The notes under the pieces were generated by a model. The model had not been told where the DNA came from. It did no database searches and saw only the letters and a list, made by a program, of their open reading frames with translations. Position numbers and translations under genes: made by a program. A stretch of DNA of 28,122 nt from a virus. Location of the stretch: UHGV virus genome UHGV-1710763; one strand, 5' to 3'. Of this stretch, positions 6,130 through 16,321 are shown piece after piece (position 1 is the stretch's first letter; each line of letters opens with the position of its first letter).

Positions 6130-7262
6130 TATGCCCCTCCTACTGGGTTAACTGTAACTGTTGCCGCATTAGATGTTACAGAGCCACCTGCACCAGTAAC
6201 TACACAAGTGTAGCTTCCTGCATCAGCAGTGGTTGCACCTTCTTTGGTGTAAGTTGCAGCAGTTGCATCGAGGATGTCTTCCTCACCTTTCTTCCACTGG
6301 TAACCTGTTGCACCTGTTGCCACAACATTCAGTGTTAAAGTCTCACCTTCAGTGATTTCTTGATTGGTTGGCTGTTGAGTGACTACCGGAAGTGCGTTAA
6401 CAATAACCGTTGCAGGGCTAGAAGTGACAGAACCACCTGCACCTGTTACAACGCAAGTGTATGAACCTGCATCTGCTGGCAGAGCACCAGACTTGCTATA
6501 GGTAGCATTTGTCGCTGAAGGAATGTCAGAGCCATCTTTCTTCCATTGGTAACCAGTTGCACCAGTTGCAGTAACTGCTAAGTTGATGTTTCCACCTTCA
6601 TTAATAGTCTGGTTAGAAGGTTGCTTGGTAATCACAGGTAGTGCGTTCACAGTCACTGTTGCTGCATCTGAGGTAACACTTGTTCCACCCTCTCCAGATA
6701 CAACACAAGTGTATGAACCAGCGTCAGAAGGTGCTACTGACTGTTTTGTGTAAGTTGCAGAATTGGCACTAGGGATATCCTCACCATCCTTCTTCCACTG
6801 ATATCCAGTGGCGTTAGTTGCTAGAATGCTTAGAGTAAGTGTGCCACCCTCATTGACTGTTTGACCTGTTGGTTGCTGAGTAATTGCTGGTGGCTTAATA
6901 GCATCCTTCAACTTAGCATTCAACATTGAGAACGGCTTAACTCTTGCCAACCATTCACAGTAAATTGTGTCAACATCTTTACCATTGATGATTGCATACT
7001 GCAAATCCATGAAGAAATCAGCAGTTCTCATCTGTGCACCAACACTGTAAAGCAATTCATCACTAAATGGAACTTTGTAGTCTGGTTTGTAGTCAAACTT
7101 CTCAACTTCTGCAATATCAGCTTCAGGCCAATATGAACTATAGGTAAGTGGTAAAATAGCCTCTTGATATGTTCTAAAATCATATCTCTTACCAGCCTTT
7201 ACATTTGCAATGAAACCCTTCACAAACTCTTTGAAGTCTGGGTAAGTCTTTGCTTTAATCAT
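6129..7262 (-). CDS. protein with an N-terminal domain of unknown function plus three tandem Ig-like (I-set type) repeats
   Basis: Three ~85-aa repeats each ending in the motif DAGSYTCVV(S/T)G and containing ATGYQWKK. Confidence 0.65.
   Translation of the reverse strand: MIKAKTYPDFKEFVKGFIANVKAGKRYDFRTYQEAILPLTYSSYWPEADIAEVEKFDYKPDYKVPFSDELLYSVGAQMRTADFFMDLQYAIINGKDVDTIYCEWLARVKPFSMLNAKLKDAIKPPAITQQPTGQTVNEGGTLTLSILATNATGYQWKKDGEDIPSANSATYTKQSVAPSDAGSYTCVVSGEGGTSVTSDAATVTVNALPVITKQPSNQTINEGGNINLAVTATGATGYQWKKDGSDIPSATNATYSKSGALPADAGSYTCVVTGAGGSVTSSPATVIVNALPVVTQQPTNQEITEGETLTLNVVATGATGYQWKKGEEDILDATAATYTKEGATTADAGSYTCVVTGAGGSVTSNAATVTVNPVGGA
6140..6900 (-). repeat. three tandem ~255-bp coding repeats (Ig-like domains) inside the 6129..7262 gene
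   Basis: Near-identical DNA blocks encoding the repeated Ig-like domain. Confidence 0.6.
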
Positions 7263-10920: not shown

Positions 10921-10997
10921 CTCTGTTTAGCTCAGCTTGGTAGAGCGTTCCGTTTGGGGCGGTAAGGCCGGAGGTTCAAGTCCTCCAACAGAGACCA
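10921..10997 (+). tRNA. tRNA-Pro (anticodon TGG)
   Basis: Hand-folded cloverleaf: acceptor CTCTGTT / AACAGAG, D-arm GCTC..GAGC, anticodon loop TTTGGGG, T-arm GGAGG-TTCAAGT-CCTCC, encoded CCA. Confidence 0.7.
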
Positions 10998-11004
10998 AAT
11001 TAAT

Positions 11005-11082
11005 GTTCCAGTAGACAAAATGGTAAAGTCACCACTCTTTCAAAGTGGATATCTGAGGGTTCAAATCCCTTCTGGAACGCCA
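11005..11082 (+). tRNA. tRNA-Glu (anticodon TTC)
   Basis: Acceptor GTTCCAG / CTGGAAC; anticodon stem CCACT / AGTGG with loop CTTTCAA; T-loop TTCAAAT; CCA. Confidence 0.75.
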
Positions 11083-11173
11083 GTTTTGACAGAAGACCAA
11101 TTACAGCAAACTTAATCTTATTCATCTGAAGGTAAATCGGACAAAGAAGAGATTTGGTCTGGTCATTAAGAAT

Positions 11174-11250
11174 TGCGGGTATAGAGAAAGGGCGTCTCAC
11201 ATGTCTCATTAGCATGGTATCGGCAGGTTCGACTCCTGCACCCGCCTCCA
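11174..11250 (+). tRNA. tRNA with CAT anticodon (Met, fMet or Ile-lysidine; identity unresolved)
   Basis: Anticodon stem CATGT / GCATG with loop CTCATTA; T-arm GCAGG-TTCGACT-CCTGC; acceptor has a 1:72 mismatch; CCA. Confidence 0.65.
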
Positions 11251-11334
11251 AATTTACAGAAGACCGTTTACAGCAATACTTATTAAATTTTTAGCGGAAA
11301 AAATTGAAATATACGGTCTGGTAATACTAAACAT

Positions 11335-11411
11335 GGTTAGGAAGCACATAAGGTATGTGCGGTCGCCTGTTAAGCGAATGGCACAGGGTTCGAATCCCTG
11401 ACTAACCGCCA
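11335..11411 (+). tRNA. tRNA-Asn (anticodon GTT)
   Basis: Acceptor GGTTAGG / ACTAACC; D-arm GCAC..GTGC; loop CTGTTAA; T-arm CAGGG-TTCGAAT-CCCTG; CCA. Confidence 0.75.
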
Positions 11412-11480
11412 AATTTAGGAGAGAAGCAATTGCTCACCGATTTGTAAGGTGCAAGTCCTTAGCCTGAATAGAAATTAAAT

Positions 11481-11568
11481 GTGTCGTTATCCCGTAGATG
11501 GTAGCGGTGGGGACTGTAAATCCCTTGTCATTGAGACTCGGTAGGTTCGACTCCTACACGGCACACCA
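11481..11568 (+). tRNA. tRNA-Tyr (anticodon GTA), class II with long variable arm
   Basis: Acceptor GTGTCGT / ACGGCAC; anticodon stem GGGGA / TCCCT with loop CTGTAAA; ~15-nt variable arm; T-arm GTAGG-TTCGACT-CCTAC; CCA. Confidence 0.65.
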
Positions 11569-11573
11569 ATAAA

Positions 11574-11651
11574 GGTTATGTAGTTTAATTTGGTTAAAAT
11601 ACTCCCCTGTCACGGGAGATGATGAGGGTTCAAATCCCTTCGTAACCGCCA
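11574..11651 (+). tRNA. tRNA-Asp (anticodon GTC)
   Basis: Acceptor GGTTATG / CGTAACC; anticodon stem CTCCC / GGGAG with loop CTGTCAC; T-loop TTCAAAT; CCA. Confidence 0.75.
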
Positions 11652-11834
11652 ATTTTGAGAGGGCTATTTAGCCCCTCCCTTAAAGGGTTCTTACGAGTAT
11701 CCTTTAAAGGAGCAGAAGACCAAATACAGCAAGTTACTTAAAATTTCAAGCCAATTTAATTTTGAAAAATTTAAAACTTGGTCTGGCTCAACAAATTTAC
11801 AGAAGACCGTTTACAGCAAAACTTAAACAATCTA

Positions 11835-11907
11835 TTTCTCCGGTAAAGAAAAGGCGAAGGTTCGATTCCTTCACTCGGCAGATGTCGAGTTGGTGTAATG
11901 GTAGCAC
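11835..11907 (+). ncRNA. circularly permuted tRNA-like element (anticodon-like hairpin, T-arm, acceptor stem closed by an AGAT loop, D-arm); candidate Y-RNA-like tRNA mimic
   Basis: Order read directly: TTTCT-CCGGTAA-AGAAA, GAAGG-TTCGATT-CCTTC, ACTCGGC-AGAT-GTCGAGT (7 bp), TG, GTG-TAATGGTAG-CAC; no 5' acceptor partner upstream and no 3' half downstream. Confidence 0.35.
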
Positions 11908-11932
11908 TTAAGATGATAAACAACGGTCTGGT

Positions 11933-12076
11933 AATTATCTTTGTAGATAAGTTATTAAGCTTACCTGTGAGTATGCGACCACAAAGGGTGAAAGGGTAAA
12001 TTCTAGATTTAAACCTAACAAGGCACATCGCTACAGACCTTAAGCAAGTCTGGGTAGCTTATCTACAAAGATAATT
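11933..12076. repeat. perfect 18-19-bp inverted repeat flanking a ~106-bp segment (long hairpin, possible RNase III site or miniature element)
   Basis: ATTATCTTTGTAGATAAG at 11934-11951 is the exact reverse complement of CTTATCTACAAAGATAAT at 12058-12075. Confidence 0.6.
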
Positions 12077-12080
12077 TAAT

Positions 12081-12156
12081 GGAAGTGTAGCAGAATGGTG
12101 ATGCGGCAGACTTTTAATCTGACAGGCGATGGGTTCGAATCCCTCCACTTCTACCA
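12081..12156 (+). tRNA. tRNA-Lys (anticodon TTT)
   Basis: Acceptor GGAAGTG / CACTTCT; anticodon loop CTTTTAA; T-loop TTCGAAT; CCA; paralogue of the Lys(CTT) gene at 13309. Confidence 0.75.
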
Positions 12157-12161
12157 AAAAT

Positions 12162-12238
12162 GGTTCAGTCGCAGATAAGGTAATGCAAGGGTTTCATAAG
12201 CCCTATGAATGTGGGTTCGATTCCCACCTGAACCTCCA
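12162..12238 (+). tRNA. tRNA with CAT anticodon (second copy; Met / fMet / Ile2 unresolved)
   Basis: Acceptor GGTTCAG / CTGAACC perfect; anticodon stem AGGGT / GCCCT with loop TTCATAA; T-arm GTGGG-TTCGATT-CCCAC; CCA. Confidence 0.7.
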
Positions 12239-12239
12239 A

Positions 12240-12315
12240 GCTGGTATAGTTAAGAAGGTTATAACACTCCCCTGATAAGGGAACATCGGTGGTTCGATTC
12301 CACCTACCAGTACCA
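12240..12315 (+). tRNA. tRNA-Ile (anticodon GAT)
   Basis: D-arm GTTA..TAAC; anticodon loop CTGATAA; T-arm GGTGG-TTCGATT-CCACC; CCA. Confidence 0.7.
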
Positions 12316-12330
12316 ATTTCAATAAAGTTG

Positions 12331-12359
12331 TTGACATTGAGATGTGACTACTTTATAGT
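12331..12359 (+). promoter_or_regulatory. strong sigma70-like promoter inside the tRNA island (TTGACA-17-TATAGT)
   Basis: TTGACA 12331-12336, exactly 17-nt spacer, TATAGT 12354-12359, with the AATAAAGTTGTTGACA upstream context. Confidence 0.6.
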
Positions 12360-12562
12360 AACCTTAGTTTTCGTTGCGTAGCGTCTATTTTGCAAATTTA
12401 AAATAAATGCAAACGACAATGTTTTTCTGGCAGTAGCTTGATAGGCTAAACACCAGTGAGGTCTTCCAATCCCTCATCAAAGAATTTGGCGTACTAGCCC
12501 ACGGTATGATTAATAAGGTGGGCATCTTTAAGGGCTTTCTAAGAGAGTCTTTAAAGATTAAT

Positions 12563-12639
12563 GCACCCTTAGTTCAATTGGATAGAGCAACGGTCTTCTA
12601 AATCGTTAGTTACAGGTTCGAATCCTGTAGGGTGTACCA
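12563..12639 (+). tRNA. tRNA-Arg (anticodon TCT)
   Basis: Acceptor GCACCCT / AGGGTGT; D-arm GTTC..GAGC; anticodon stem ACGGT / ATCGT with loop CTTCTAA; T-arm ACAGG-TTCGAAT-CCTGT; CCA. Confidence 0.75.
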
Positions 12640-12780
12640 ATTAGTTAGCAGATTACTTAGACGACCTAAGCGGGTCTTCCTGTAGGGAGGTGGTCTGTAT
12701 CTCATGTTTTCCAGAACATGTAAATAATCTGAGAAGGGGCTTTACAGTGTTGAGATAATACGGTAAGCTTCGAATTATAG

Positions 12781-12867
12781 TATGGGACGATGTTAAGACT
12801 CTAAGGCATGAGCAACGGCTTCCAACACCGTTTCAAAGGGGTTCAACTCATCCGTCCCATGCCAAAG
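12781..12867 (+). ncRNA. unresolved tRNA-like structured element (11-bp terminal stem, 9-nt-loop hairpin with CTTCCAA, T-loop-like GGGGTTCAA, ends GCCA)
   Basis: TATGGGACGATG pairs with CATCCGTCCCATG; internal hairpin AACGG-CTTCCAACA-CCGTT; no canonical cloverleaf could be drawn. Confidence 0.3.
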
Positions 12868-12877
12868 TCTTATTAGG

Positions 12878-12965
12878 GGTAGGTAGCGGCTAATGGTAGC
12901 CAAACAGTCTTGAAAACTGTTGCCACTGTAGAGATACGGTGAGGGTTCGACTCCTTTACTTACCG
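12878..12965 (+). tRNA. tRNA-Ser (anticodon TGA), class II; CCA not encoded
   Basis: Acceptor GGTAGGT / ACTTACC; anticodon stem ACAGT / ACTGT perfect with loop CTTGAAA; long variable arm; T-loop TTCGACT. Confidence 0.6.
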
Positions 12966-13223
12966 CCTAATAAGATTTTACACCGTCCATGCTTGCTCGC
13001 ATTTTCGGTTTATCCCTCGTGTATTGTCGTACACACTGATAAAGCACCTAGTAGGTGTCACGGAGAAGAGATAATATCAAGCTCTCCAAAGGTTCTAGCC
13101 ACCGGATTAAACAAGACTATGCAAAGACCTTTTTAGGTCTTTTTAGAGGGCTTCTAAGGTTATTACAGCTTGTTGTGGAACCTTGTTGCTTAGGTTCTTA
13201 GAAGTTCTCTAAAAAGATTTAAT

Positions 13224-13301
13224 GGGAGATTGACGGTAATTGGTAAACCTACCATCCTTAGAAGTTGGTGTTTGAGGGTTCGAATCCCTTGTCTCCTACC
13301 A
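13224..13301 (+). tRNA. tRNA, anticodon provisionally TAG (Leu) on a class-I-length scaffold; identity uncertain
   Basis: Acceptor GGGAGAT / GTCTCCT (two G-U pairs); loop CTTAGAA between CCATC / GTTGG (one mismatch); T-arm GAGGG-TTCGAAT-CCCTT; CCA; D-arm irregular. Confidence 0.5.
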
Positions 13302-13308
13302 AATTAAT

Positions 13309-13384
13309 GCAGGTGTAGCAAAATGGTTATGCGGCTGACTCTTAATCAGTAAGACGATGGGTTCAATTCCCTCCACCTGTACCA
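13309..13384 (+). tRNA. tRNA-Lys (anticodon CTT)
   Basis: Acceptor GCAGGTG / CACCTGT; anticodon stem GCTGA / TCAGT with loop CTCTTAA; T-loop TTCAATT; CCA. Confidence 0.75.
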
Positions 13385-13391
13385 AACAATG

Positions 13392-13467
13392 GGGGTCATA
13401 GTTTATATGGTTAAAATTCGAGTTTTGCAAACTTGGGAACTGAGTTCAATTCTCAGTGACTCCACCA
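13392..13467 (+). tRNA. tRNA-Ala (anticodon TGC)
   Basis: Acceptor GGGGTCA / TGACTCC; anticodon stem CGAGT / ACTTG with loop TTTGCAA; T-arm CTGAG-TTCAATT-CTCAG; CCA. Confidence 0.75.
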
Positions 13468-13473
13468 ATTAGT

Positions 13474-13548
13474 GCATCCATAGTTTAAACGGGAAAATTA
13501 CAGTCTTCCAAACTGAGGTTGAGGGTTCGATTCCCTCTGGATGCTCCA
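13474..13548 (+). tRNA. tRNA-Gly (anticodon TCC)
   Basis: Acceptor GCATCCA / TGGATGC perfect; loop CTTCCAA; T-arm GAGGG-TTCGATT-CCCTC; CCA. Confidence 0.75.
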
Positions 13549-13562
13549 AATTAAGGTGTGAT

Positions 13563-13976
13563 ATGAAAATATGCAGTACTTGCAGAATACCAAAAGATGA
13601 AAGCTTATTCCATAAGAATAAGAACAAGAAAGACGGTCTTCAAAGTCAATGCAAAGATTGTGCAAGACTTCGTGATGCAAAGAGTTATCAAGCAAATGAT
13701 AAAAGGAAAGAGGCTATTAAAAGCACTCGTAACTTCAAGAGAGAGCATAACAAGACTCTAGCTAGAAGGTACAAAGCTTTATGCAAATGTCATATATGTG
13801 GTGAGAAAGAACCAGTTGCACTGGATTTACACCATACAGACCCTTCCCAGAAAGATTTGAATCCTGCATCACTTTATTCATACTCCACAAAAAGATTAAA
13901 AGATGAAATCAGAAAGTGCATTGTCTTGTGCGCTAACTGTCACAGAAAAGTACATGCTGGTATCATAAAAGTTTAA
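13563..13976 (+). CDS. HNH family endonuclease (free-standing homing-endonuclease-like gene)
   Basis: Cys pairs CKDC and CKCHIC plus an HNH core (LDLHHTD ... N ... CANCHRKVH) in the translation; sits between tRNA-Gly and tRNA-Thr. Confidence 0.7.
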   Translation: MKICSTCRIPKDESLFHKNKNKKDGLQSQCKDCARLRDAKSYQANDKRKEAIKSTRNFKREHNKTLARRYKALCKCHICGEKEPVALDLHHTDPSQKDLNPASLYSYSTKRLKDEIRKCIVLCANCHRKVHAGIIKV

Positions 13977-13977
13977 T

Positions 13978-14054
13978 GCTGCTTTCGTATAATTGGCTAT
14001 TACACATCCCTTGTAAGGATGGAAATGCAGGTTCGAGTCCTGTGAGCAGCACCA
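13978..14054 (+). tRNA. tRNA-Thr (anticodon TGT)
   Basis: Acceptor GCTGCTT / GAGCAGC; anticodon stem CATCC / GGATG perfect with loop CTTGTAA; T-loop TTCGAGT; CCA; starts 2 nt after the HNH stop codon. Confidence 0.8.
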
Positions 14055-14149
14055 ATTCAGAGGTCAAGTGAAAGACCGCTGGTGTCAACTGAAGACCGTA
14101 ACAAATTCCACGGAGTTGAGTTAGCGGCACAACTTCAGACCTCTTTCAT

Positions 14150-14224
14150 ACTCGCTTAGTTTATATGGTAAAACATCACCCTTACAAGATGAAGAGAAAG
14201 GTTCAAGCCCTTTAGTGAGTACCA
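14150..14224 (+). tRNA. tRNA-Val (anticodon TAC)
   Basis: Acceptor ACTCGCT / AGTGAGT; D-arm GTTT..AAAC; loop CTTACAA; T-arm AAAGG-TTCAAGC-CCTTT; CCA. Confidence 0.65.
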
Positions 14225-14225
14225 T

Positions 14226-14303
14226 GTTCCAGTATCCCAATTGGCAGAGGATGCAAGCTCAAACCTTGTACTAGTGACGGTTCGAATCCGTCTTGGAACA
14301 CCA
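14226..14303 (+). tRNA. tRNA with CAA anticodon (Leu-type) but only a 6-nt variable region
   Basis: Acceptor GTTCCAG / TTGGAAC; anticodon stem GCAAG / CTTGT with loop CTCAAAC; T-arm GACGG-TTCGAAT-CCGTC; A73; CCA. Confidence 0.6.
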
Positions 14304-14308
14304 ATTTT

Positions 14309-14384
14309 GCAGGATTAGTTCAAATGGATAGAGCAACAGTCTACGAAGCTGTTAATAGGGGTTCGAATCCCTTATCCTGCGCCA
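14309..14384 (+). tRNA. tRNA-Arg (anticodon ACG)
   Basis: Acceptor GCAGGAT / ATCCTGC perfect; D-arm GTTC..GAGC; anticodon stem ACAGT / GCTGT with loop CTACGAA; T-loop TTCGAAT; CCA. Confidence 0.8.
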
Positions 14385-14403
14385 ATTTAAAGAGGCTATT
14401 TAG

Positions 14404-14961
14404 ATGAGATATTTGAAGTATGCTTCATGGATTTTCTTAGCTTTGTTAGAGCCATTTGCAGCAATCTTAGCAGTTATCTTAGCACCTTTTGTAGTTCCAT
14501 TCTACAGTGAGAAGAAAGGACACTTACCTTTCGGATTCAGATGGATGGAGACATATGACAACCCAATTGATGGTGATGAAGGTCACGTTAAAAGATGGGC
14601 TAATATTAGATGGATTGGTAAACTAGGTGTCTACATGCAAAGAGTCGGATGGCTCTGGAGAAACAAAGCTTATAACTTCTCTTACCATGTATTAGGAAGA
14701 GATGTAAAAGATGTTACTAAGTGGAAAGGTAATATCAACGTAAGTTCTAACCCTGAAGATAATCAGACAGGTTATCTCCTAATGTGGAACAGCAATGCTT
14801 GGGGATTATTCGCTTTTATCCCATCAATTAAAATCTTTGGTAAACAGTTCTACTGGAGAATTTATATTGGGTGGAAGCTAAAAAGTGTTGTCCCAGAAGA
14901 AAGAGCATTCTCAAGGGAAAGAGTTATGTTGGCATTCTTTATTCATCCACTAAGAAAGTAA
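14404..14961 (+). CDS. hypothetical membrane protein (hydrophobic N-terminus, Trp-rich)
   Basis: ORF-track ORF; N-terminal hydrophobic stretch WIFLALLEPFAAILAVILAPFVV; embedded between tRNA genes. Confidence 0.55.
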   Translation: MRYLKYASWIFLALLEPFAAILAVILAPFVVPFYSEKKGHLPFGFRWMETYDNPIDGDEGHVKRWANIRWIGKLGVYMQRVGWLWRNKAYNFSYHVLGRDVKDVTKWKGNINVSSNPEDNQTGYLLMWNSNAWGLFAFIPSIKIFGKQFYWRIYIGWKLKSVVPEERAFSRERVMLAFFIHPLRK

Positions 14962-14969
14962 AGATTTAA

Positions 14970-15045
14970 AGGGGATTAGTTTACAAGGTTAAAACCTCGG
15001 TCTTTGAAATCGAAGAAGTTGGTTCAATTCCAACATCCCCCGCCA
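14970..15045 (+). tRNA. tRNA-Gln (anticodon TTG)
   Basis: D-arm GTTT..AAAC; anticodon stem TCGGT / ATCGA with loop CTTTGAA; T-arm GTTGG-TTCAATT-CCAAC; weak 1:72 pair; CCA. Confidence 0.7.
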
Positions 15046-15047
15046 AT

Positions 15048-15126
15048 GCTCCATTACTCCAATTGGCAGAGAGGCCAGACTTAAAATCTGTGTTATGTAT
15101 CGGTTCGAATCCGATATGGAGTACCA
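15048..15126 (+). tRNA. tRNA with TAA anticodon (Leu-type) but only a 7-nt variable region
   Basis: Acceptor GCTCCAT / ATGGAGT; anticodon loop CTTAAAA; T-arm ATCGG-TTCGAAT-CCGAT; A73; CCA. Confidence 0.6.
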
Positions 15127-15131
15127 AATTT

Positions 15132-15207
15132 AGCGGTATAGCATAACTGGCAATGCAACAGTCTCTGAAGCTGTCTTATTAAGGTTCAAATCCTTATGCC
15201 GCTGCCA
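15132..15207 (+). tRNA. tRNA-Gln (anticodon CTG)
   Basis: Acceptor AGCGGTA / TGCCGCT; anticodon stem ACAGT / GCTGT with loop CTCTGAA; T-arm TAAGG-TTCAAAT-CCTTA; CCA. Confidence 0.7.
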
Positions 15208-15238
15208 CTTCTAAGGGTTCTTACGAGAGTCCTTAAAT

Positions 15239-15314
15239 GTGGCCTTATCATAAATGGTAATGACCCATGCTGTGAACATGGTCTATACGGGTTCAAATCC
15301 CGTAGGTCACCCCA
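15239..15314 (+). tRNA. tRNA-His (anticodon GTG)
   Basis: Acceptor GTGGCCT / AGGTCAC; D-arm TCAT..ATGA; anticodon stem CCATG / CATGG perfect with loop CTGTGAA; C73 discriminator; CCA. Confidence 0.75.
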
Positions 15315-15321
15315 ATTTATA

Positions 15322-15396
15322 GTCCAAGTAGCTTATATGGTTAAAGCGCGTGTCTGAAAAACATGAGAAGAGGGTTCAAATCCCACTGGACTACCA
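15322..15396 (+). tRNA. tRNA-Phe (anticodon GAA); acceptor register ambiguous
   Basis: D-arm GCTT..AAGC; anticodon stem CGTGT / ACATG with loop CTGAAAA; T-loop TTCAAAT; ends ACCA. Confidence 0.65.
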
Positions 15397-15412
15397 ATTT
15401 CAAAGGTGCTTA

Positions 15413-16147
15413 ATGAAAGAGATGACAGAACAAGGTAAGGAGATTTTTAATCTCTTAAAAACCGGTAAAGGGTTTTCTAACCCACTTATTACTGGTGCAG
15501 CAGTTCTCGGTGGAACCGTAGCTGCCTCTACATCACTTGTAAGCTCTATTAGCTCTGTAACAGACCCTACAACGAAGGAGAAACTTGTTGCTGCTGGACT
15601 TACAACAGTTCTTCTAAACAGCTTTACAACAAGCCTGACAAGCACTACAGCAACTACTAAGACCCTAACAGACTACGGTCAAAAGTCTATTGATGAGTTT
15701 TCATCACGTATGCAGGTGGCAAAGGGATATTCCAATGTTATGGGTGCAGCAGGAGAACAAGTTGGTTGTACACCATTCAGTGGTATTATGGGTGTTGCTA
15801 CAGAGTATGGTCAGCAAGCTATTGACATGATTAACAGCACACTAGACAGTGTTAACGGTGTGTTAAGTGACTTACAAGATGCTATTGACAAGGGTCTTGA
15901 TACTGTTTCTGATTTAGCTAACCAAGCTGTAAGTAAGATTAATGAAGGTATTTCAAAGATTACAGCTTATGCAGATGAAGTTGTGCAGATGATTGAAGAA
16001 GAAGCTGCCCTTATTGCAGAGTACCTTAAAACGAATATCAATGGGTTCTTAGCAGGTATCTTACCAGACTGGTTTGATGATGCCTGTAAAACTGGTGTAA
16101 TTGACACTATTGCAACACCAGAAATGAAGAACGCATTACAGAAATAA
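15413..16147 (+). CDS. hypothetical Ser/Thr-rich protein; start moved downstream of the track ORF (15350) to the first ATG clear of tRNA-Phe
   Basis: Track ORF 15350..16147 overlaps the tRNA at 15322-15396; the in-frame ATG at 15413 has AAAGGTG upstream. Confidence 0.55.
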   Translation: MKEMTEQGKEIFNLLKTGKGFSNPLITGAAVLGGTVAASTSLVSSISSVTDPTTKEKLVAAGLTTVLLNSFTTSLTSTTATTKTLTDYGQKSIDEFSSRMQVAKGYSNVMGAAGEQVGCTPFSGIMGVATEYGQQAIDMINSTLDSVNGVLSDLQDAIDKGLDTVSDLANQAVSKINEGISKITAYADEVVQMIEEEAALIAEYLKTNINGFLAGILPDWFDDACKTGVIDTIATPEMKNALQK

Positions 16148-16148
16148 T

Positions 16149-16241
16149 GGAAGATTAACCCTAAAAGGTAAGGGAGCAGTTTGCTAAACTGCCAGTAGCT
16201 GAGAAATCGGTGTACCAGTTCAAGTCTGGTATCTTCCTCCA
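16149..16241 (+). tRNA. tRNA-Ser (anticodon GCT), class II with long variable arm
   Basis: Acceptor GGAAGAT / ATCTTCC perfect; anticodon stem GCAGT / ACTGC perfect with loop TTGCTAA; ~20-nt variable arm; T-arm ACCAG-TTCAAGT-CTGGT; CCA. Confidence 0.8.
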
Positions 16242-16245
16242 ATTT

Positions 16246-16321
16246 GAATCCGTGACAGAAATGGCTATGTGCCTGTCTGCAAAACAGGTTTATAAGGGTT
16301 CGAGTCCCTTCGGATTCTCCA
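16246..16321 (+). tRNA. tRNA-Cys (anticodon GCA)
   Basis: Acceptor GAATCCG / CGGATTC perfect; anticodon stem CCTGT / ACAGG perfect with loop CTGCAAA; T-arm AAGGG-TTCGAGT-CCCTT; CCA. Confidence 0.8.

Follow-up and report, generated by a model that had tools for sequence, protein, structure and literature searches.

Canonical tRNAs combine a 7-bp acceptor stem with a 5-bp T stem and connect the acceptor and D stems by two nucleotides (U8 and N9). The closest published architecture to the one described here is that of the irregular (8/4) "E-loop" tRNAs, in which an additional loop separates the acceptor stem from the D stem (Mukai et al., NAR 2017, PMC5389517; PMC7609411). The E-loop cases come from soil metatranscriptome polycistrons, probably acidobacterial, lie near toxin-antitoxin genes and have a GCU anticodon and U73 (PMC5389517; compared here by description). 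An 8/4 branch is likewise found in phage (8/4) tRNA-Ser and tRNA-His and in allo-tRNAs, which are found in tRNA clusters of phages and are compatible with translation in bacteria (PMC5389517). Here, we analyse a 28,122-nt stretch of viral DNA (UHGV virus genome UHGV-1710763; hereafter the window), which stems from a Felixounavirus, i.e. a Felix O1-type myovirus, and is 99% identical to its best match. We suggest, with a probability of roughly 0.72, that 12782-12864 on the + strand of the window is a phage tRNA-Trp(CCA) gene built on a non-canonical architecture that is common to many phages. The class to which it belongs differs from the known 8/4 E-loop kind of tRNA in its phage-array setting, its Trp identity, the covariation-supported pairing between connector and variable region and the recurrent C31·A39 mismatch; in the literature that we searched, no paper describing a phage 8/4 tRNA-Trp class was found.

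Two lines of evidence from the locus point to Trp. The first is the tRNA array in which the element is embedded. ARAGORN detects 26 tRNAs at 10921-16321 of the window, all on the + strand and 25 of them with an encoded CCA. These tRNAs cover 19 amino acids with Trp as the sole gap, and the element sits in a 239-nt gap between tRNA-Arg(TCT) and tRNA-Ser(TGA). The Felix O1 genome paper reported 22 tRNAs, Trp not among them (PMC3185647), and no RNA is annotated at the position of the element in the deposited Felixounavirus records that were inspected. The second is an allelic replacement, found in 23 phage records, among them wV8, phiSUSP1 and Sf19. In these, 12782-12865 is swapped for a 71-nt tRNA-Trp(CCA) followed by a 134-aa HNH-like open reading frame (ORF), and the flanks on both sides are common to the two alleles. 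The alternative tRNA-Trp is detectable by ARAGORN, and wV8 has all amino acids covered (20/20). In L004, the segment replaced by the tRNA-Trp and HNH pair corresponds exactly to window 12782-12865. About 230 records carry the element, and the records with the element and those with the alternative allele together make up all 254 spacer-matching records. A second tRNA-Trp or an opal suppressor was not found at any locus with a member of the class described below.

The sequence of the element also has the hallmarks of Trp identity. According to the identity set reported with a co-crystal structure, E. coli tryptophanyl-tRNA synthetase (TrpRS) uses the CCA anticodon, G73 (major) and A1:U72 and G5:C68 (minor), and touches the anticodon and the acceptor arm only (PMC12135181). 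The element has this set in full. CCA and G73 are invariant; pair 1-72 is AU in 13/15 homologous sequences and in the window; and pair 5-68 is GC in 10/15 and GU in 4/15, with GC in the window. Among 28 tRNAs compared, host tRNA-Trp is the nearest, with 56/75 aligned positions shared, and the anticodon register was assigned by hand from homology to this tRNA. Specifically, E. coli trpT shares with the element the block GAGCA-NNNNN-CUCCAAA-A as well as G73, A1:U72 and G5:C68. It differs from the element in that its branch is 7/5, it has U8-A9, its D stem is 4 bp long and U31 pairs with A39, and it scores far below class members under the class covariance model. An earlier note on this DNA, made from the letters alone, had seen in the loop string CTTCCAA the loop core of tRNA-Gly. 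This proved to be a coincidence caused by the U32 variant: most relatives read C-CUCCAAA-A, the anticodon is CCA, G is the discriminator and host tRNA-Trp matches best, and tRNA-Gly identity was therefore rejected.

The architecture was worked out from an alignment of 15 sequences from 10 or more lineages (A4) and from a larger set of lineages. The parts of the element are as follows:

12782-12864, + strand: whole element, a candidate 83-nt tRNA-Trp(CCA) gene with an encoded CCA end (class model, ARAGORN in -mt mode, allele swap).

12782-12789, + strand: 5' strand of the acceptor stem, ATGGGACG, 8 nt, pairing with 12853-12860; two-sided changes in all eight pairs.

12790, + strand: A9, the unpaired nucleotide after the acceptor stem; invariant in A4 and A in 27/29 lineages.

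12791-12793, + strand: connector strand TGT of the putative extra helix; T12791-A12835 and G12792-C12834 paired, T12793 and T12833 unpaired.

12794-12798, + strand: linker TAAGA, class consensus U-A-A-N; T13 and A15 more than 90% conserved in A4.

12799-12812, + strand: D hairpin with stem CTC/GAG (12799-12801 with 12810-12812) and loop TAAGGCAT containing the conserved GG (RNAalifold, covariation).

12814-12832, + strand: anticodon arm with the 26-44 pair (A12814-T12832), stem ACGG/CCGT, the C31·A39 mismatch (C12819·A12827) and loop TTCCAAC; two-sided changes in four stem pairs.

12822-12824, + strand: anticodon CCA (Trp), with U33 before and A37 after it; invariant in all variants and called Trp(cca) by ARAGORN -mt and by ARAGORN after a 6-nt deletion.

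12833-12837, + strand: variable-region strand TCA of the putative extra helix, then the AA dinucleotide, which is invariant in sets not selected for AA.

12838-12852, + strand: T arm with 4-bp stem GGGG/CATC and loop TTCAACT; A12850 is private to the window, with CCTC or CCTA in every other copy.

12853-12860, + strand: 3' strand of the acceptor stem, CGTCCCAT; covaries with the 5' strand.

12861-12864, + strand: discriminator G73 and encoded CCA end; G invariant.

Thus, the element keeps several canonical features, i.e. the D-loop GG, the T loop TTCAACT (TTCRANY), U33, the purine A37 and the CCA end, while the canonical 7-bp acceptor stem, 5-bp T stem and 2-nt connector are missing, as is U8. 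The acceptor stem is linked to the D stem by nine nucleotides (12790-12798) instead of two, and the length of this link is conserved across lineages while its sequence is not; for instance, the linker reads TAAC, TAAT, TAAA or TATA in other lineages. The branch is assigned as 8/4 rather than 7/5 because the eighth acceptor pair always forms in the 15 sequences (GC 8, UA 5, UG 2; never unpaired) and because the base before the T stem (A49) is unable to pair with position 65 in any lineage. Across lineages, the eighth pair is formed in 27/29. The acceptor/T branch in this way keeps the canonical total of 12 bp (8+4). Judged from the alignments, the main oddity of the element lies outside the anticodon loop, namely in the 8/4 branch and in the pairing of a long 5' connector with the variable region.

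Covariation carries this fold. In A4, 94% of cells are paired and 16/20 pairs have two-sided changes; the covariation score is 0.68 compared to 0.05-0.12 for slid controls, and 0/500 shuffles scored as high. RNAalifold on the 15 homologs recovers independently the acceptor stem (8 bp), the D and anticodon stems and the T stem (4 bp). For the D stem, all three pairs covary (3/3), the T-A pair being A-T in Mooglevirus-type copies with G25 invariant. The rival D stem drawn by ARAGORN -mt (TTAA/TGAG) was discarded, as the A-to-T change in Mooglevirus would break it while the CTC/GAG stem is compensated instead. Within Felixounavirus and Mooglevirus, six pairs have two-sided changes (D stem 1, anticodon stem 4, T stem 1) and slid controls have none; the element is always 83 nt with zero indels at about 40 loci of these two genera, and 17/19 variable columns are compensated or structure-neutral. 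For the proposed extra helix, pair 10-54, counted from the first nucleotide of the element, is UA, GC or AU and pair 11-53 is GC, CG or AU, with both formed in 15/15 sequences. Both pairs are Watson-Crick in 12/12 lineages (shuffle maximum 10) and, in a larger set, in 25/29 lineages (shuffle maximum 14). Taken together, these patterns argue that the element is not a chance resemblance to a tRNA and, at the level of the family, not a decaying pseudogene.

The same architecture is present in at least 29 lineages, nearly all of them phage or metagenome contigs. A metagenome scan anchored on the 3' third only gave the distant homologs L043 and L050/L054, and scans that used the anticodon loop and T arm as anchors gave many more members in unrelated viral contigs of 20-216 kb. 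A scan of 185,579 prokaryotic species genomes gave 15 pattern matches with a single true member, which is on a 1.7-kb contig of a metagenome-assembled genome; with just 1/15 matches genuine, prokaryotic genomes were set aside as a source of the class. The 5' half of the class plan has an 8-bp acceptor strand, A9, a 3-nt segment complementary to three nucleotides of the variable region, the U-A-A-N linker and a D hairpin with GG, and the 3' half has the anticodon arm, AA, a 4-bp T stem, G73 and CCA. Under a covariance model of the class (R1), members score 79-97 bits, L081 54.7 bits and ordinary tRNAs at most 51 bits, the canonical phage tRNA-Trp of GodonK being at 51 bits; each locus has a single member. 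Over positions 1-83, the window copy reaches 87.5 bits. One homolog, in Salmonella phage PVP-SE1 (GU070616, 64638-64718), follows the same plan (81 nt, 8/4, A9, ACA/CGT as connector-variable segment, C31·A39) and is separated from the adjoining tRNAs by spacers of 6 and 2 nt. It is labelled tRNA-Trp in GenBank, while its close relatives are without annotation; beyond this database label, we found no structural description, and ARAGORN makes no call.

A separate observation concerns L067, in which a 79-nt tRNA-Gly(UCC)-like gene at 6576-6654, missed by ARAGORN, has the same 8/4 core and, with GCT/AGC, the connector-variable helix; it carries U73, and its anticodon stem is paired throughout. Because this gene has the same core, the rewired core is not restricted to Trp.

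How does the phage class compare with the systems described above? The class and the E-loop tRNAs have in common the 8+4 branch of 12 bp and, as far as described, extra nucleotides between acceptor and D stem; standard tools miss both and both tend to match the tRNA-Sec model. By contrast, the class is found in tRNA arrays of virulent phages, has complete Trp identity, has extra nucleotides that covary with the variable region and has the recurrent C31·A39. In allo-tRNAs and phage (8/4) tRNA-Ser, the variable arm is long and the D arm is Sec-like (6-bp stem and tetraloop), and their isoacceptors differ from the element, which has a variable region of 5-6 nt and a D arm with a 3-bp stem and an 8-nt loop and thus lacks the allo-tRNA features; within the class, a Sec-like D arm is found in L050 and L081 only. 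Finally, tRNA-Trp(CCA) of the Blastocrithidia-like kind, whose anticodon stem has 4 bp, resembles the element in its CCA anticodon and in having only four Watson-Crick pairs in 27-31/39-43 (PMC13092985). However, the Blastocrithidia-like tRNA has a 7-nt loop and an open pair 27-43 at the top of the stem, while in the element the bottom C31·A39 is open, the loop is formally 9 nt and a 26-44 pair is added on top. Pair 27-43 is formed in the element and covaries (AU, UA, CG), which places the element outside the Blastocrithidia-like group. That study set bottom-unpinned tRNA-Trp genes aside and did not analyse phages (PMC13092985).

Standard detectors miss the element. With default settings, ARAGORN calls no tRNA at its position in the window and detects 1/43 members across the class. 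The Rfam tRNA model has no match in the window at the gathering threshold, nor at E<=10 when the gap alone is searched, and none at E<=10 in L002 and L007; with RF00005 (threshold 29 bits), one of four members is a marginal match at 30.8 bits, and below threshold it is often the tRNA-Sec model that matches better. Relaxed ARAGORN runs (-ps, -i) gave inconsistent calls only (Pyl, "???", Cys or Leu with introns), which were set aside. By contrast, ARAGORN -mt on relatives gives tRNA-Trp(cca) with identical boundaries, and any 6-nt deletion in the connector leads standard ARAGORN to call a 77-nt tRNA-Trp in the relatives, never in the window copy.

These results bear on the description in the earlier note, which had proposed a tRNA-like element without a canonical cloverleaf at 12781-12867. 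The location was right, with the element at 12782-12864 inside these limits, and so was the non-canonical fold, as the Rfam searches assigned no standard tRNA here. The terminal stem does end in G-CCA and the T-arm-like GGGG-TTCAACT is present. Similarly, the proposed 5-bp hairpin AACGG/CCGTT with the 9-nt loop CTTCCAACA is supported, as RNAalifold on the 15 homologs finds the same loop and 4/5 pairs covary, although this form is recurrent rather than universal. The 11-bp terminal stem, however, does not hold: just 8 bp are conserved and covarying, the three additional pairs need the private A12850, and pair 10-69 is found in 1/11 variants. The single-sequence fold is not significant (z = -1.9), and the other helix of the minimum free energy (MFE) fold is broken without compensation in relatives. 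Of the explanations offered, an expanded-loop tRNA came closest in that the element is probably a non-canonical tRNA in which C31·A39 is unpaired, but there is no inserted base of the kind that lets a frameshift suppressor read four bases, and the YUCCAAM core aligns with host CUCCAAA.

In our model, the element would be co-transcribed with the + strand tRNA array and the transcript trimmed to 83 nt with the encoded CCA end. It would then be charged by the host TrpRS and read UGG, thus supplying the only amino acid that the 26 detectable tRNAs of the array leave uncovered. In the folded RNA, the 8-bp acceptor stem would be stacked on the 4-bp T stem, and two to three connector nucleotides would pair with the variable region to give a short extra helix enclosing the D and anticodon arms. 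Use in translation is plausible because the 12-bp acceptor/T stack is kept and because 8/4 tRNAs work in E. coli (PMC5389517). A promoter near consensus (TTGACA-17-TATAGT) lies upstream at 12331-12359; a candidate promoter immediately 5' of the element (TTGAGA-17-AATTAT) was at chance level and was rejected.

Several observations weigh against this model. Canonical core elements are absent or displaced (no U8, a long connector and, in this lineage, a 3-bp D stem). The proposed connector-variable helix is 2-3 bp long, is absent from the MFE and RNAalifold predictions and draws its support from covariation alone. Several of the compensated pairs may derive from few events or from patch recombination, and parts of the class set came from pattern searches in which the anticodon loop, the T arm and the AA dinucleotide were fixed. 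The raw diversity of the element is not below that of the adjacent spacer (pi 0.073 vs 0.071); raw conservation was therefore dropped as a sign of function, the spacer being equally conserved. In addition, the only E-loop 8/4 tRNA tested was uncharged by E. coli GlyRS or ThrRS (PMC5389517), and the predicted cloverleaf of the window copy is 6.6 kcal/mol weaker than that of its relatives and lies 7.6 kcal/mol above its own MFE fold.

The last point leads to the alternative that survives best, although we consider it doubtful: the gene in the window has recently been inactivated, i.e. it is a functional pseudogene, or C12850A is a sequencing error. C12850A is the sole base that sets the window apart from every other copy. 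The base is unique among 206 related phage records, in which there is no 100% match (best 99.1%), and is not found in any metagenome copy. It turns the T-stem pair G52-C62 into G·A, affecting one of four T-stem pairs and removing one of the two G-C pairs that flank a G·U. The cloverleaf energy is -15.5 kcal/mol in the window compared to -22.1 kcal/mol in the nearest relative, and because of C12850A the MFE fold of the window copy is switched to a rod with a long terminal stem. Moreover, ARAGORN -mt and the 6-nt deletion test fail for the window copy alone. On the other hand, C12850A is a lone substitution in an otherwise intact element that still reaches its high score under the class model, single T-stem mismatches are also present in other natural copies (U·U of the L015 type; G·G in L042), and G·A pairs and tRNA modifications are able to stabilise helices. 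The window copy may thus be weakened, or the base may be an error. For a pseudogene, as the earlier note had offered, this means that the idea may hold for the window copy with its private T-stem mismatch but does not fit the family, in which there are zero indels and 17/19 variable columns are neutral or compensated.

A broader idea, which we regard as unlikely, is that the rewired body alters decoding, in the form of UGA readthrough, or hides the tRNA from host defences that cleave tRNAs, making the class a phage device for manipulating or protecting translation. Its decoding version draws in part on C31·A39. The mismatch is present in every Felixounavirus and Mooglevirus copy (about 230 genomes) as well as in L043 and L050; none of these copies was chosen on account of it. 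In other class members, position 31-39 is UA, UG, AU or GC, and about half of the lineages are paired here; PVP-SE1 itself has C·A while its close relatives have U·G. C31·A39 was at first considered as a class hallmark, but the initial patterns fixed both bases and a rescan with these positions free found paired members. Thus, C31·A39 is a recurrent variant and not a defining trait.

Specifically, a tRNA-Trp with widened decoding would read UGA as well as UGG by way of the rewired position 9/D arm and the open C31·A39 and would allow programmed opal readthrough. While this would be compatible with a tRNA-Trp(CCA) gene, we find it rather improbable. It is known that unpinning of the anticodon stem promotes UGA reading by tRNA-Trp(CCA), as do the body mutations A9C and G24A (Hirsh) (PMC13092985); bottom-unpinned tRNA-Trp genes occur in bacteria and were not studied there; and C31·A39 is fixed in the two genera and recurs in other lineages. 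However, the published mechanism acts by opening pair 27-43 at the top of the stem, a pair that is formed and covaries here, the 31-39 pair is formed in about half of the class lineages, and a fully paired alternative allele replaces the element in 23 phages. In the window, TGA recoding is not indicated: stop codons are TAA 22, TGA 4 and TAG 3, and no ORF ending in TGA has a long in-frame extension.

Very improbable is a tRNA-shaped RNA outside decoding, i.e. a decoy or resistant substitute against host tRNA-cleaving nucleases, or an RNA with a structural or processing role in the transcript of the array. In its favour, phage tRNAs with altered anticodon loops have been proposed as a countermeasure to host tRNA nucleases (PMC10264068), and most Felixounavirus species escape Retron Eco2, which nicks several tRNAs, tRNA-Trp among them, in their acceptor stems. 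Moreover, the body of the element is unusual with variation at positions 32 and 38 (U..C or C..A) and at 31-39, and irregular 8/4 tRNAs of soil bacteria are charged yet unused in translation, or uncharged. Against it, the CCA anticodon is invariant and the TrpRS identity set complete, the single amino acid missing from the array is the one that the element matches, the place of the element can be taken by a normal tRNA-Trp, the 12-bp acceptor/T length required by EF-Tu and the ribosome is retained, and a nuclease-resistant tRNA would still decode, so that this version merges into a tRNA-Trp gene. For the same reasons, i.e. the full TrpRS identity set and the Trp slot, the tRNA mimic proposed in the earlier note is the less likely reading.

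If the element is a tRNA-Trp(CCA) gene as we suggest, more than 200 deposited Felix O1-type genomes would seem to be without tRNA-Trp only through detector misses. The same misses in many other phage arrays would bias phage tRNA counts and analyses of codon supplementation. The class would also represent a natural, covariation-supported case in which the core of the L-shape is built otherwise, in E. coli and Salmonella phages that are experimentally easy. Its core is rewired exactly where the E. coli tRNA-Trp mutations A9C and G24A create opal suppression, and a bottom-unpinned tRNA-Trp(CCA) in a tractable system would allow the idea that anticodon-stem unpinning promotes UGA reading to be tested. 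If decoding were altered or defences evaded, the class would be more than a simple codon supplement.

The HNH-linked swap of tRNA-Trp alleles would be an instance of homing-type turnover inside tRNA arrays. In L004 (E. coli O157 typing phage 11), the alternative allele is at 1648-2137 and consists of the 71-nt tRNA-Trp, which has a shortened D arm, and the HNH-like gene. The allele is 96-100% identical across three genera, a level of identity that points to spread by homing with co-conversion of the adjoining tRNA. The alternative tRNA-Trp is labelled tRNA-Trp, tRNA-OTHER, pseudo or not at all in different records, and that of Sf19, which differs by one base, is not called by ARAGORN. In the window, a 137-aa HNH-like ORF at 13563-13976 (+ strand), between tRNA-Gly and tRNA-Thr, is 48% identical to the ORF beside the alternative tRNA-Trp; because the same gap is only about 10 nt in L001, L002 and L004, we interpret this ORF as a mobile insertion in the array. 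In phages with the alternative Trp allele, the upstream tRNA-Arg(TCT) is also uncalled (L004 about 1168-1500; L005 1062-1505). In L005, the annotation has an unnamed 82-nt "tRNA" and, after it, an endonuclease VII-like ORF, an arrangement that resembles a further cassette swap in the array.

Other parts of the array also have unusual features. The gap between tRNA-Ile and tRNA-Arg at 12331-12562 contains the promoter at 12331-12359, followed by a frame similar to the tag of transfer-messenger RNA (tmRNA), ANDNVFLAVA with two stop codons (about 12408-12443), in which all between-genus differences are synonymous or stop-to-stop. A hairpin at about 12452-12473, after the tag frame, has three compensated pairs. 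Rfam tmRNA models match this gap below threshold, ARAGORN calls a permuted tmRNA in Mordin, and an ssrA call by ARAGORN was previously published for phage Moogle (PMC4319497); no tRNA-like domain of its own was seen in 12331-12562. L001 and L003 have an 88-nt insertion just after the equivalent of the promoter, which the window lacks, and the 3' part of the gap exists in two alternative versions among relatives. Further downstream, a long and very stable hairpin at 13118-13226 (-40.2 kcal/mol, z = -5.8) ends 3 nt 5' of tRNA-Leu(TAG), and a related motif, ...TAAAGATTAAT, lies 5' of tRNA-Arg at about 12525-12562; the hairpin and the motif may be processing or transcription signals. Finally, window 11823-11873 is a sub-threshold tRNA match (22 bits, model positions 7-64) with no obvious acceptor partner and a good T arm (GAAGG-TTCGATT-CCTTC), and may be a tRNA remnant within the 430-nt gap after tRNA-Asp.

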